64,000 bases of DNA, taken from positions 61,860-125,859 of the forward strand of contig DAIQMY010000001.1 of the NCBI GenBank assembly GCA_036788695.1. The letters are read 5' to 3'. The position numbers and the translations under genes were made by a program. Position 1 is the stretch's first letter. Every line of letters begins with the position of its first letter. This DNA is from Candidatus Levyibacteriota bacterium. Lineage in GTDB: Bacteria > Patescibacteriota > Microgenomatia > Levybacterales > GWA1-39-11. The notes under the pieces are model-generated. The model saw only the letters and a program-made list of their open reading frames with translations, did no database searches and had not been told where the DNA came from. Below, piece by piece: positions 3,163 to 25,032 of the stretch.

Positions 3163-3618
3163 TTATTTGTAGTGACTTTTTATCTGAAAGATTAAATAGA
3201 ACCCAACTAAAGTGAATACTATTCCTCCCAAATCAAGCGGTGCAAGAATTGCTGAAAGCAAAGCTACAGCCTCACTCCAAAAAAGAAAATTCCATCCTGA
3301 AATTTTGTATTTTTTGGTTCCCGGAAAAGCGGCAAGCAATAAACCTGATGAAACTATAGTGAGAATTGCTGCTAAAACTCCGCCACCCAAAGCCCTTCCT
3401 GCTCCTCCCATAATTGCGAATGGAGAGAAAACAGTAAGAAGTCCAAGACCTGCTATCCCACCAAGTACACCTAATATACCAAAAATAAGCGCAATCCATG
3501 GGGTAATCTTCGCAATAACATCTCTTGCTTCTTTTGGAAGTGCAGGGAGTTTATCAAATAATTCCTGCGTTTTATCAATAATGTTTTGTGTTGTTGTTTT
3601 TGCCATTTTTTTTCTCAC
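3163..3618 (-). CDS. Small glycine-rich integral membrane protein (hypothetical)
   Basis: 151 aa with 3-4 hydrophobic helices carrying G-zipper-like motifs (GILGVLGGIAGLGLL). Strong SD (AGGAGGTGA) 8 nt upstream of the ATG. The antisense ORF 3212..3652 was judged spurious. Confidence 0.5.
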   Translation of the reverse strand: MRKKMAKTTTQNIIDKTQELFDKLPALPKEARDVIAKITPWIALIFGILGVLGGIAGLGLLTVFSPFAIMGGAGRALGGGVLAAILTIVSSGLLLAAFPGTKKYKISGWNFLFWSEAVALLSAILAPLDLGGIVFTLVGFYLIFQIKSHYK

Positions 3619-5490: not shown

Positions 5491-5832
5491 ATGAAGAAAA
5501 AGGAATTAAGCCCCAGAAAAACAAATATGACACTAAATAAACACTACGAAAAAGTATACGAGCTTGTAAGAAAGATTCCCAAAGGAAAAGTTACGACATA
5601 TGGAACACTCGGTAAAAAGTTGGAAATGTCACCACGGGTAGTAGGTCAAGCGCTTCACGCAAACCCCTATGAAGGAGAAGTTCCCTGTCATAGAGTGGTA
5701 AATAAAATGGGTCGTCTAGCACCTACCTTTGCGTTTGGAGGAAAAAACGCTCAAAAACGCTTATTGGAAACTGAGGGAGTACTCTTTAAGAATGACTATG
5801 TAGACATGTCAAAGTCATATATAACGGCGTAA
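5491..5832 (+). CDS. MGMT-family protein (O6-alkylguanine-DNA alkyltransferase DNA-binding/active-site domain only)
   Basis: Canonical PCHRVV active-site motif. Helix-turn-helix region begins at YEKVYELVRKIPKGKVTTYGTLG. No N-terminal Ogt domain. An alternative start is MTLNK at 5527. Confidence 0.6.
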   Translation: MKKKELSPRKTNMTLNKHYEKVYELVRKIPKGKVTTYGTLGKKLEMSPRVVGQALHANPYEGEVPCHRVVNKMGRLAPTFAFGGKNAQKRLLETEGVLFKNDYVDMSKSYITA

Positions 5833-5834
5833 GG

Positions 5835-6377
5835 CTACTGCTGACTTTCTAATTTATAATTCCCAAACTTTGTACACCCGCCGCCTGTACCATCATAGTA
5901 ATTTGCTCCCCCCGCTTGAATTGATGGATCAGAAGCGTTCTCAAGTCGAGTTACAAGGATATATGACTGTCCGTCTGCAGTATAGTATGCGTATCCTCGT
6001 GTAGTCGTATCTCCTGGAGTGCATGCCCCACCCTGGTCAGTAAAAGAAGGATCCTGGCTCATTGCCTGAATATATGTGGATGCATTTGGTCCAAACATAG
6101 ATGATGCGGGATCTATGTTCCAACAATTCCAGCTTGTCGCACTAAAACATGTTCCGCTTGCATATACATCTGGATTTGGATATGCCCCGTTATCAGTGTA
6201 ATATTGTTCTAATGCATTTTGTACATCCCGTAACGTTGCCTTACGAGCAGCATCTCTTGATTTTTGAAGTTGGGCGACTGGATTTAGCACTACAATTCCA
6301 ACAGTCACAAGAATCCCCAAAACGGCAATAACGATTAAAAGTTCTATAAGCGTAAAGCCACTTGATTTCTTTCTCAC
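5835..6377 (-). CDS. Type IV pilin / pseudopilin (prepilin-type N-terminal cleavage-methylation domain)
   Basis: N-terminus MRKKSSGFTLIELLIVIAVLGILV is a class III signal: G|FTLIEL with Glu+5 and a hydrophobic helix. C-terminal region has paired Cys. Confidence 0.7.
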   Translation of the reverse strand: MRKKSSGFTLIELLIVIAVLGILVTVGIVVLNPVAQLQKSRDAARKATLRDVQNALEQYYTDNGAYPNPDVYASGTCFSATSWNCWNIDPASSMFGPNASTYIQAMSQDPSFTDQGGACTPGDTTTRGYAYYTADGQSYILVTRLENASDPSIQAGGANYYDGTGGGCTKFGNYKLESQQ

Positions 6378-6443
6378 ACTTTTAGTAAAGCATAGGGATG
6401 TTAGAGTGTCAATTTACGACAACTAAAAGAGGTACGGAGAACT

Positions 6444-6623
6444 GCAAAAAACCCGTTACTTTTTCTGTAGTTTAAAGATTTCTGCAATTTCAATCAGCGT
6501 TGTTGCGTCGTTTGGTTTTTTTAGGATCGCAGCAAAGCGAGAGCCGCAAAAAACCCGTTACTTTTTCTGTAGTTTAAAGATTTCTGCAATTTCAATCAGC
6601 GTTGTTGCGTCGTTTGGTTTTTT
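6444..6623. repeat. Perfect 78-bp tandem direct duplication (copies 6444..6521 and 6546..6623, 24-bp spacer) covering the last 15 codons plus stop of the DNA ligase gene
   Basis: Both copies read gcaaaaaacccgttactttttctgtagtttaaagatttctgcaatttcaatcagcgttgttgcgtcgtttggtttttt. Copy B is the real 3' end of the ligase ORF (…IAEIFKLQKK*). Copy A is a non-coding duplicate downstream. Confidence 0.8.
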
Positions 6624-8321
6624 ATCCTCCCTAAACCGCTCTAGCCTGGGAAATCGCAAGGCGTATCCTGGAACGTCCACATCATACGCTGATCCACTCT
6701 TTGAGGGCTTTAATGTTCTTCCCGCTGTATGCACAGGGGACCGGGTCAGTTCATCTGCTTTAATTTCTACTACAATCTCCGGGTTTACCCACACATCTGG
6801 CTCCAACCATTTATCTACTTCGTATAGTACTGGTTTTATTTTTGATTTTAATTTATCTCCTCGCTTCGCAAGTTCTCTCCACTCATCATCAGTAAGTCCA
6901 GTCCCTACCTTTGCAATAGTTAAGAACTTATCCTGTTTTGAGTCATAAATACCTATAAGAAACGCGCCAATTCCAAAACTAGTCCTCTTGCCACGTCCAT
7001 AGTAGTAACCCATAACTACACAGTCCACTGTATCGTCTAATTTTGACTGATATGATCTTTTCAGCTTTATCCAATTCCATCCTCTTGCCCCTGCTTGATA
7101 TGTGCCGTCAAGCTTCTTGGCTAATATCCCCTCAAGACCTCTAGAAATTGCATCATCAAAAAAGTTTTCTATTTCCTTTCCATCATTTAATACTTTCTCT
7201 TCAGCAGGATACAAAACACTTCCGTCTTTGATCATCTTGTTCAGCACTTTTCGTCTTTCTATGTAATGCTTGGGAATTAAATTCTCACCATCTACATATA
7301 ACGCGTCAAAAACCATGTATTTTAAGGGAATTTTGCGTGCCATCTCTTCTATGTCATATTTTCTTTTTCTCTGAGATGTTAACTGGAATGGAAGATATTC
7401 GTTTGTGTTAGGGTTATATGCTATTGCTTCCCCCTCAAATATAGCCTCTTTTGCCTTCATTTGCGATTTAATTCCTGCCTCAACATCAGGATACATAAAT
7501 GTTACTTCCTCTAAATTCCGCGTATACAATTTGACATTTTTCCCGTCCCAATGCGCTTGAAGCCTAAAACCATCAAACTTTTCCTCTACGGCACATTCAC
7601 CGATCTTATCAATTATTTCTTTTCCTGAACTTAATCTTTCTGCGCGAGCCATAAGTATAGGTGTTCCAACTGCAGGCTTCACCTTTCCAACGCCTTTGAT
7701 TCCATGCTCCTTGAGCATTTTGCCTATAACTCCCAGGTCTGGTCGTATGTTGTATGCCCTCTCTATTTCTTTTCTATAACTTTTGTTTCCTGCTAACATC
7801 CAGGACAAAGAATCTAAAACAGTCATATCAGAAAATCCTAAGCGTAACTTTCCAACAGGAATTCTAGCCACAAATCTTACGGATAATGGGTCTAAATCTT
7901 TAAATACATCTGAAAGCAATCCTATCTTCTTTTCAACTGAACCTGCACCATTTGTTTTCGTAATTTGTTCAAGAGCTGAAAAAACGTGTGCTATTGATGG
8001 ATCTTTGACTGAGTGTTTCTTACCCAAACTTAATTTTTCAGCCAAATCTCCTACATCTCCAATTTTTTTAAATTCAGCAGTAACATTCTTATCATCCTCC
8101 CCATATGCTAGGGCAACTGACCGCAGGATCATTTTGTCTGCCATCCCAAATTCGAGAGGAACATAGAGGGGTGCTACTCTTCCCTGGAGCAGATACATAA
8201 CGTGATCCATGTCTTCTACGGGAACTTTTTCAAAAAGCTCGGCTAAAATAAGCACCATTTCATTACGGGAAGTTATATTTTCTAATTTTTGAAGATAAAC
8301 TGAAAGGTCCGCAAATTTCAT
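6558..8321 (-). CDS. lig: ATP-dependent DNA ligase (archaeal/eukaryotic LigB-type, ~587 aa)
   Basis: Adenylation motif I EEKFDGFR (KxDG). N-terminal DNA-binding domain, then nucleotidyltransferase and OB domains. The size fits three-domain ATP-dependent ligases. Confidence 0.85.
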   Translation of the reverse strand: MKFADLSVYLQKLENITSRNEMVLILAELFEKVPVEDMDHVMYLLQGRVAPLYVPLEFGMADKMILRSVALAYGEDDKNVTAEFKKIGDVGDLAEKLSLGKKHSVKDPSIAHVFSALEQITKTNGAGSVEKKIGLLSDVFKDLDPLSVRFVARIPVGKLRLGFSDMTVLDSLSWMLAGNKSYRKEIERAYNIRPDLGVIGKMLKEHGIKGVGKVKPAVGTPILMARAERLSSGKEIIDKIGECAVEEKFDGFRLQAHWDGKNVKLYTRNLEEVTFMYPDVEAGIKSQMKAKEAIFEGEAIAYNPNTNEYLPFQLTSQRKRKYDIEEMARKIPLKYMVFDALYVDGENLIPKHYIERRKVLNKMIKDGSVLYPAEEKVLNDGKEIENFFDDAISRGLEGILAKKLDGTYQAGARGWNWIKLKRSYQSKLDDTVDCVVMGYYYGRGKRTSFGIGAFLIGIYDSKQDKFLTIAKVGTGLTDDEWRELAKRGDKLKSKIKPVLYEVDKWLEPDVWVNPEIVVEIKADELTRSPVHTAGRTLKPSKSGSAYDVDVPGYALRFPRLERFREDKKPNDATTLIEIAEIFKLQKK

Positions 8322-23553: not shown

Positions 23554-25032
23554 ATGATTCAAGTTAAAAATGTCTCCTTTAATCATTTACGTCCTATTTT
23601 TAAGGAAATCAGCTTTACGGTAGGGGTTGGACAAAAAGTAGGATTAGCAGGGCCAAACGGTGCGGGTAAAAGTACCCTTTTTAACCTTTTAACACGGCAA
23701 GAATTACCCCATGAAGGAAATGTAGAAATAGAAGGGTCAGTTGTTTTAGTTCCCCAAGAAGTAAAAAGAGATCCAATTTTGGAAAAATCTCAAACAGCAC
23801 GCGAATATTTAGATGAGCAGTATATACATGACAACCGGGATATTCTGGAAATGTTGCGCGGTCTAGAACTTTCTGAGATTGAGCTGTACGAATCAGCACA
23901 TGGGCTAAGTGGTGGTCAAAAAACAAAACTGGCAATTGCCCGAGCGCTCCTTCATACGCCTGACATACTTCTCCTGGATGAACCTACCAACTTTTTAGAT
24001 ACAAAAGGAAAACTATGGGTAATGAATTTCCTTAGTACATACCCAAAAACCTTAATCTTAGTCTCGCATGATCTAGAGCTATTGGATAAATCTATTGATA
24101 AAGTGATCGTAATCAATCCGGAAAACTCAAAAATTGAAGAATATAAAGGAAATTACAGTCAGTATATAAAGCTTAAGGCACAGCACGATGCATTACTCAT
24201 AAGGCAAATAACAAATGAGGTGAAACATGTAAAAAGGATGGAAAAAAGCTTAGTGGGACTCATGAGCAGAAAGTCAGAAAAGGGTGTAAGACAGCGTGTT
24301 CAGCTTCAAAAACGGATCGAAAGAATAAAGGAGGCACTCCCCCCGCTTCCTAAAGAAGCAAAGCGAATCCAAGTAGCACTACCAAAACCTCAACCTCTTT
24401 CTGACGCACCCATAAAGGTACAGGATATAAAAAAGAGTTTTCAGGAAAAGCTTATATTTGAACATCTCTCCCTCATAGTTAATAGGGGTGAGCGAATAGC
24501 ACTCATAGGACCAAACGGTGCGGGAAAAAGTACCCTAATCAAAATACTCATGGGTACGCTTATCCCGGACGTTGGAGAAGTAATTCGCAATGAAAAATTA
24601 AAAGTTGGATATTACTCACAAGAGTTTGAAACATTTAACTTCAACCAAACGCTTATAGATTTAATCGCGGAACGGGGGGCTATGCCACATGAAAAAATTC
24701 GGGCATTTCTGGCAGCATTCCTATTTAATGGTACAAAACCATTCCAAACCATAGGATCGCTATCTGGAGGAGAAAAAACAAGACTCTCAATTGCCACACT
24801 TCTTCTTGAGAATTATAACTTGCTGGTCTTGGACGAACCTACAACGTATTTAGATGTCATGTCTCAAAGAATAATTTTAGAAGCACTAAAAAAATACACC
24901 GGAGCAATTCTTATAGTAAGTCATACGGAGGATTTTATTAAGGAATTAAAGCCTGATCGAGCGCTACTGTTACCCGAAAATAAAGTGCTTGGTTGGTCGG
25001 ATGAGTTGCTTGACGAAGTCGGCAAAATCTAA
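23554..25032 (+). CDS. ABC-F family ATPase (tandem ABC domains, no TMD; EttA/Uup-like translation factor)
   Basis: Two Walker A motifs GPNGAGKST, two signatures LSGGQKTKLAIARAL / LSGGEKTRLSIATLL, Walker B LLLDEPTN / LVLDEPTT, and an inter-domain linker. Confidence 0.85.
   Translation: MIQVKNVSFNHLRPIFKEISFTVGVGQKVGLAGPNGAGKSTLFNLLTRQELPHEGNVEIEGSVVLVPQEVKRDPILEKSQTAREYLDEQYIHDNRDILEMLRGLELSEIELYESAHGLSGGQKTKLAIARALLHTPDILLLDEPTNFLDTKGKLWVMNFLSTYPKTLILVSHDLELLDKSIDKVIVINPENSKIEEYKGNYSQYIKLKAQHDALLIRQITNEVKHVKRMEKSLVGLMSRKSEKGVRQRVQLQKRIERIKEALPPLPKEAKRIQVALPKPQPLSDAPIKVQDIKKSFQEKLIFEHLSLIVNRGERIALIGPNGAGKSTLIKILMGTLIPDVGEVIRNEKLKVGYYSQEFETFNFNQTLIDLIAERGAMPHEKIRAFLAAFLFNGTKPFQTIGSLSGGEKTRLSIATLLLENYNLLVLDEPTTYLDVMSQRIILEALKKYTGAILIVSHTEDFIKELKPDRALLLPENKVLGWSDELLDEVGKI

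Follow-up and report, generated by a model that had tools for sequence, protein, structure and literature searches.

A copy-number-variable tandem repeat of a DNA ligase gene end in two sister species of Levybacteria

The ligase gene and the repeat at its 3' end

The stretch of DNA analysed here (the window, 64 kb in length) carries an ATP-dependent DNA ligase gene on the minus strand at positions 6558–8321. This gene appears in the open reading frame list with a product of 587 amino acids, matches the Pfam families DNA_ligase_A_N, DNA_ligase_A_M and DNA_ligase_A_C (PF04675, PF01068 and PF04679), and is called identically on a public contig. The exact ligase protein is found on four public contigs; the one corresponding to the window is ENA ERZ794922 NODE_17 (L001 in our numbering of the survey of relatives, which covered roughly 160 related loci). 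The genes located within 5 kb of the repeat on either side are Fic, response regulator, ligase, pilin, MGMT-like, PHP-like and glycosyltransferase genes.

The intergenic region downstream of the ligase is bounded by a type IV pilin-like gene with an N-terminal methylation motif (5835–6377, minus strand), which is itself outside the repeat. The pilin-like protein has a weak match to the ComP DNA-uptake-sequence receptor family (E 7e-5, below the curated cut-off). The gap between the ligase and pilin genes is 180 nt in length, and the second repeat unit sits inside it. Directly downstream of this unit is a candidate pilin promoter (TTGACA, 17 nt, TTTACT; 6384–6412, minus strand) that was read by eye: a consensus scan did not call it, nor did it call any sigma-70 promoter around the repeat. 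L001, L002 and L003 share the conserved candidate promoter block AAATTGACACTC.

The repeat is built on a 78-mer (GCAAAAAACCCG...GGTTTTTT) that occurs at 6444–6521 and 6546–6623 with 0 mismatches and is present exactly twice in the window; none of 100 dinucleotide shuffles contained any 78-mer match. The perfect 78-bp duplication reported in the first-pass annotation is thus confirmed. The similarity extends to 85 nt (6437–6521 versus 6539–6623, spacing 102), over which the copies are 98% identical (97.6%): the two mismatches, at 6441 and 6443, both fall in the 3'UTR, and the coding part is identical. The 24-bp spacer originally placed between the copies has been corrected to the 17 nt (6522–6538) that separate the 85-nt copies. 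Tandem Repeats Finder describes the region with a period of 102, 1.8 copies, 97% matches and a score of 360. This is the sole direct repeat of at least 31 nt in the 64 kb. The only other repeat of at least 30 nt in the window is a 30-nt direct repeat at 23649–23678 and 24507–24536 (93% identical, 858 nt apart).

All parts of the repeat are described here in the sense of the ligase, on the minus strand. Unit 1 (copy B, 6539–6623) consists of the last 21 ligase codons, KKPNDATTLIEIAEIFKLQKK (6561–6623), the TAA stop codon (6558–6560), and the beginning of the 3'UTR, which contributes 12 nt to the perfect part of the repeat and 19 nt to the full unit. It is followed by the spacer (6522–6538), GCTTTGCTGCGATCCTA, which is the distal 3'UTR of unit 1 and is unique in the window. 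Unit 2 (copy A, 6437–6521) is non-coding, but has its own TAA codon (6456–6458) and is in the ligase frame in the window, as the period of 102 nt equals 34 codons. The open reading frame positions agree with the earlier assignment of copy B as the true coding end of the ligase and of copy A as a non-coding copy between the ligase and the pilin gene.

Copy number, distribution and age of the array

The repeat recurs in other assemblies of its species, and the number of copies differs among them. The window has two units, while L141 (JGI Ga0268298) and L161 (GCA_964419005.1) each have three, with the same 102-nt period and the same spacer; the ligase coding sequences of the window and L161 are 99.4% identical at the nucleotide level. 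In L141 and L161, a synonymous difference tells the units apart: GAG in units 1 and 2 corresponds to GAA in unit 3 and in both window units. An array with the same architecture and a period of 107 is found in a sister species, the ligase of which is 86.7% (nucleotide level, coding sequence) and 94% (amino acid level) identical to that of the window species. In the sister species, L162 has two units, L002 has at least four in an array broken by a run of 100 Ns, and L163 has a contig end inside unit 3. The units are therefore head-to-tail with a constant period and vary in number among close strains, as read from short-read assemblies. The exact number in any one assembly is uncertain, because the ligase genes of L002 and L162 are 100% identical yet assembled with at least four units and two units, respectively.

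A single gene end is found in two lineages with 88% ligase identity, one represented by five loci (L003 and L165–L168) and the other by L164. No further lineage above 88% ligase identity was found in a collection of 5.8 billion proteins, and the array is therefore confined to the two sister species. Comparison of orthologous 3' regions, the check proposed with the first-pass annotation, accordingly gives two, three and three copies in the window species, two to at least four in the sister species, and one in the 88% lineages. The gap varies in other ways: L164 has a 106-amino acid gene on the opposite strand (3282–3602) between the ligase and the pilin. Runs of 100 Ns are located at the ligase 3' end in both L002 (6958–7057, inside the array) and L005 (6757–6856). 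These may be scaffold gaps or masked stretches, and that of L005 may hide a similar repeat. Many of the TPA metagenome bins titled 'uncultured Gammaproteobacteria' (L003–L019 and others) carry a Levybacteria-type ligase and gene order, and their titles look like placeholders or mislabels.

The 85-nt cores are far more similar within genomes than between species. Identity is 97.6% within the window and 97.6–100% within a genome, compared with approximately 81% between the two species, a pattern of concerted evolution. Between the two species, 27 of the 33 aligned positions in the stop-distal UTR plus spacer are identical; when the spacer is taken by itself, as good a score is obtained in 43 of 5000 shuffles. 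A multiple alignment of the UTRs, although short and weak, places the internal UTR and spacer against the UTR of the terminal unit and against that of single-copy L003. Examples are the pairing of TGCGATCCTA (window spacer) with GTGCGTCCTA (L003), and of TTCACTTTCGT (internal unit of the sister species) with TTTACTTTCAT (last unit of that species). We have moderate confidence, from these alignments, that the internal UTR and spacer are homologous to the native 3'UTR and that the unit contains no foreign filler; because the 17-nt spacer aligns with native sequence, there would be no foreign DNA between the copies. The excess of within-genome over between-species identity, together with the homologous spacers, indicates one duplication that predates the species split and was followed by concerted evolution. 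A slippage-type tandem duplication, one of the origins proposed in the first-pass annotation, fits these data, but its description as recent or trivial does not: the duplication predates the split of two species and its copies have evolved in concert.

We consider it likely that the array is a locus-specific minisatellite of variable copy number that arose from one old illegitimate tandem duplication and has been homogenised since. In the common ancestor of the two Levybacteria species, a single event of this type would have duplicated a unit of 102–107 nt comprising the last 21 ligase codons, the stop codon and approximately 33–38 nt of 3'UTR. The first unit alone remains attached to the gene and is translated; the units after it are non-coding and form 3'UTR or intergenic sequence. 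The copies would since have been kept near-identical, and their number changed (two, three or at least four), by slippage, gene conversion or unequal crossing-over in the 85-nt core, while the array ends, which are not exchangeable, would have drifted apart. We read the poorly matching distal UTR as old divergence at the array edge, beyond the reach of recombination in the core. For the first duplication, a hairpin-assisted template switch is plausible but unproven: an A-run, AAAAAACC, opens the unit and shows complementarity to GGTTTTTT of the 3'UTR, so that an 8-nt inverted repeat of the UTR falls on the left unit boundary.

Experiments with E. coli are relevant to both the variability and the age of the array. 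In this species, 101-bp tandem repeats are deleted without RecA, and a palindrome between the repeats strongly raises deletion (PMC7145654). The variable copy number of the ligase array fits RecA-independent deletion of this type. Such repeats are expected to be lost quickly, and so survival of the array in two species that have diverged by approximately 13% at the nucleotide level is not obviously neutral.

Gene ends in relatives, the junction hairpin and other origins

Natural competence is known among Patescibacteria, and a type IV pilin gene adjoins the ligase. The array could have begun as gene-end displacement in natural transformation (homology-facilitated illegitimate recombination), in which incoming DNA pairs on one side with the ligase gene, joins illegitimately upstream of the resident gene end and pushes this end downstream; repeated rounds, or later unequal crossing-over, would build an array. 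C-terminal displacement at T6SS and Rhs loci, for which the model is established (PMC5361080), is the nearest described process to the duplicated gene ends of the relatives, and L014 (6725–6888) shows the expected pattern. Over its body, the L014 ligase is 90.4% identical to that of L013, but the end of its coding region resembles L090 (87.5% versus 75%). A non-coding copy 31 nt downstream, with its frame intact, translates to exactly the L013 end. The coding end is therefore foreign and the displaced downstream end native, as displacement predicts. However, the L014 spacer resembles the native L013-type UTR, which is also consistent with duplication first and allelic replacement later.

Duplicated ends are also observed at the ligase genes of other relatives. 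In L046 (6684–7399), genes encoding a HicB-like antitoxin (6807–7067) and a HicA toxin (7067–7297) are located between the ligase end and a second copy of it (7323–7399) that is 73–76% identical. In L135 (681–1794), an APH-family kinase gene (718–1794) directly follows the ligase stop codon and ends ...EEIFKLQGK*: a 29-nt copy of the ligase end (1763–1791) replaces the last codons of the kinase itself (compare the L007 homologue). L007 has a 20-nt repeat spanning the ligase stop codon, with GAAAAAATAAGGAGACCTTG occurring twice (6755–6804); within the 10-nt spacer lies TTTTTCTG, which is the reverse complement of CAGAAAAA, the final ligase codons. Breakpoints vary among these lineages, lying at the codons KKP in three cases (window, L014 and L046) and at EEIF in L135, which argues for illegitimate recombination and against a fixed att site.

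Similar patterns occur at genes other than the ligase. In L017 (972–2895, minus strand), the last 47 codons of recF (1849–2895) are recopied with the frame intact at about 972–1115, 876 nt downstream and past an insert of approximately 0.8 kb. The 3' end of trxB (thioredoxin-reductase-like) in L037 (10445–11627) is copied 153 nt downstream, and that of an unannotated gene in L081 (8905–9919) is copied 314 nt downstream, in both cases with 82–84% identity. When one criterion was applied to 1055 open reading frame ends, the strong matches were the ligase in the A/B clade and L046, versus recF, trxB and two other genes; in a reversed-sequence control, no match reached the score of these cases (mirror self-matches near position 2500 were discounted). 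The ligase end was considered as a special hot spot, but its excess over other genes is marginal. This marginal enrichment also counts against displacement at the ligase, although the recF, trxB and L081 cases speak for the process. Since the window copies are identical, a foreign end would not be recognisable among them, and the array may have begun either by displacement or by a replication error. We regard displacement as an unlikely origin for the array.

A second possibility concerns the junction between the units, where a hairpin is predicted at 6514–6555 (minus strand). Its outer 8-bp stem is formed by GGUUUUUU (3'UTR of unit 1) and AAAAAACC (first codons of unit 2), and short inner stems are located in the spacer. 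Folded by itself, the stretch that begins at the stop codon and reaches into unit 2 gives -15.1 kcal/mol (z -1.45) in the window. The junction of the sister species, in which GGUUUCUU pairs with AAGAAACC, folds at -20.2 kcal/mol (z -3.0), a value equalled by 1 of 200 shuffles. One pair in the outer stem is compensatory between the species (U-A to C-G). The inner stems of the two species are not homologous in sequence alignment, and neither the UTRs of the last units nor the single-copy UTR of L003 fold. A search across about 30 relatives for a hairpin shared by the gene end and the UTR found no common structure. Based on two independent sequences and a single covarying pair, the junction hairpin is suggestive at most. 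If it were functional, unit 2 might have been retained as a selected 3'UTR element, its first 8 nt serving as the 3' arm of a post-stop hairpin that protects the mRNA 3' end or insulates it from the pilin promoter.

The persistence of the array in two species despite the instability of such repeats (PMC7145654) would agree with selection of this kind, as would the presence of the compensatory change and the lack of folding in last-unit and L003 UTRs. On the other hand, the comparison involves only two independent sequences with a single covarying pair and inner stems that are not homologous in alignment; template switching can create and 'maintain' hairpins, and create compensatory changes, without selection (PMC8794818); and the hairpin requires 8 nt of unit 2, not 85. 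The stem also lacks the features of an intrinsic terminator, as its U-run is inside the stem and no U-tract follows it. The first-pass annotation had suggested a terminator-like element in copy A, and this was not borne out: a consensus scan found 0 terminator-like sites in 5700–7000, and folding of the whole region is no better than that of shuffles (z-score 0.04), the inter-copy junction being the part that does form a predicted hairpin. No Rfam match with an E value of up to 1 was found in 6300–6720. Retention of unit 2 by selection is, in our assessment, quite improbable.

Three further candidates for the origin or role of the units were rejected. Fold-back synthesis could have formed the spacer by copying the adjacent UTR in inverted orientation; such a match is significant with the 8-nt A-run arm included (equalled by 63 of 5000 and 97 of 5000 shuffles), but not without this arm. 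The signal is thus carried by the 8-nt arm only, and the spacer aligns with native UTR instead. Read-through extension of the ligase would be possible with the in-frame period of 102, but the period of 107 in the sister species is out of frame, and so there is no conserved read-through product. A template and variable repeat pair of a diversity-generating retroelement is not indicated, as the coding parts of the copies are identical, both differences are in the UTR, and no reverse transcriptase gene is present within 5 kb on either side.

Repeated gene ends are a classic mark of integration into the 3' end of a protein-coding gene, as for e14 and phage 21 in icd, and the first-pass annotation had raised the possibility that the ligase repeat is such a footprint: an element carrying a surrogate gene end would have integrated, producing attL and attR, before decaying or being deleted. 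Cassettes between two ligase ends in distant relatives (HicB/HicA in L046, the APH-like kinase in L135) are in keeping with this reading. It is nevertheless very unlikely for the array. Close strains have three and at least four head-to-tail units; as the earlier note itself observed, no element lies between the copies, only 17 nt that align with the native 3'UTR; and the lineage-specific breakpoints described above argue against a fixed att core. No integrase, transposase or recombinase gene was found within 5 kb on either side of the repeat, and no tRNA gene in the first 20 kb of the window. The repeat unit (searched in IMG/VR as a degenerate pattern) had no match in IMG/VR, the INPHARED phages or the PLSDB plasmids, although absence from these collections is not proof, and the 78-mer was not found in the rest of the window.

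Least probable of all, to the point of being barely credible, is that a single gene end was falsely duplicated by the assembler: short-read de Bruijn assemblers do handle tandem repeats near the k-mer size poorly, and L002 and L163 have an N run and a contig end within their arrays, but a copy-to-copy junction of the type TTTGGTTTTTTTAGGATCGCAGCAAAGCGAGAGCC, running from the end of one unit through the spacer to the start of the next, recurs in six assemblies that differ in sample and pipeline (ENA, JGI and NCBI) and come from two species with differing unit sequences, which excludes an artefact of a single assembly, and the GAG/GAA difference distinguishes the units in L141 and L161. The existence of at least two copies is therefore established against the artefact that the first-pass annotation had allowed for.

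Significance and comparison with known systems

The repeat is real, inherited and variable in copy number, and adds another case to a kind of feature that is already known. Only three points go beyond the ordinary: its persistence, the junction hairpin, and the recurrent stranded gene ends in relatives, with any function putative. In practical terms, the array is a minisatellite of strain-typing grade, and serves as a warning to annotators and assemblers, as scaffold gaps and contig ends fall inside it. That an approximately 100-bp tandem repeat with an inter-unit hairpin has outlasted a species split is unexpected from laboratory deletion rates. We see only a small chance that the array is non-neutral, either because the junction hairpins are functional or because gene-end duplicates trace transformation-driven insertion of small genes in reduced genomes. 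If the transformation reading were true, a new gene end and its cargo would enter and the old end would be pushed downstream, with ligase, recF and trxB as examples. If systematic, stranded gene ends behind small inserted genes would represent a route of gene insertion in bacteria of the candidate phyla radiation, which are poor in recognisable mobile elements.

Mycobacterial MIRU-type minisatellites are tandem repeats of 46–101 bp between genes. The ligase array resembles these and other bacterial minisatellites (VNTRs) in its head-to-tail units of approximately 100 bp at a gene boundary, its strain-variable copy number and its homogenised copies. It differs from the MIRU type in that the unit is made of the gene's own end and 3'UTR and is found at this locus only, with no dispersed family. 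With the attL and attR sites of e14 and phage 21 in icd, the array shares a duplicated gene end and a restored reading frame; unlike them, it is accompanied by no element or recombinase, exceeds two copies and has breakpoints that vary among relatives, and we found no attP.

The array also has features in common with template-switch hairpin mutations (PMC8794818) and RecA-independent rearrangement (PMC7145654): a boundary at an 8-nt inverted repeat, a hairpin at each junction and a compensatory change. It differs from template-switch mutations in that the inverted-copy signal is restricted to the 8-nt arm, with two species available for comparison. As outlined in PMC5361080, citing Jackson et al. 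2009, the C-terminal displacement arrays at Rhs, CdiA and T6SS effector loci consist of divergent toxin tips and immunity genes under diversifying selection. In contrast, the ligase copies are identical, have no separate product and belong to a housekeeping gene. What the array shares with the Rhs, CdiA and T6SS loci is the presence of orphaned 3' ends downstream of a functional end, and the relatives L014, L046, L135 and L017 further share with these loci the inserted DNA between the new and displaced ends.
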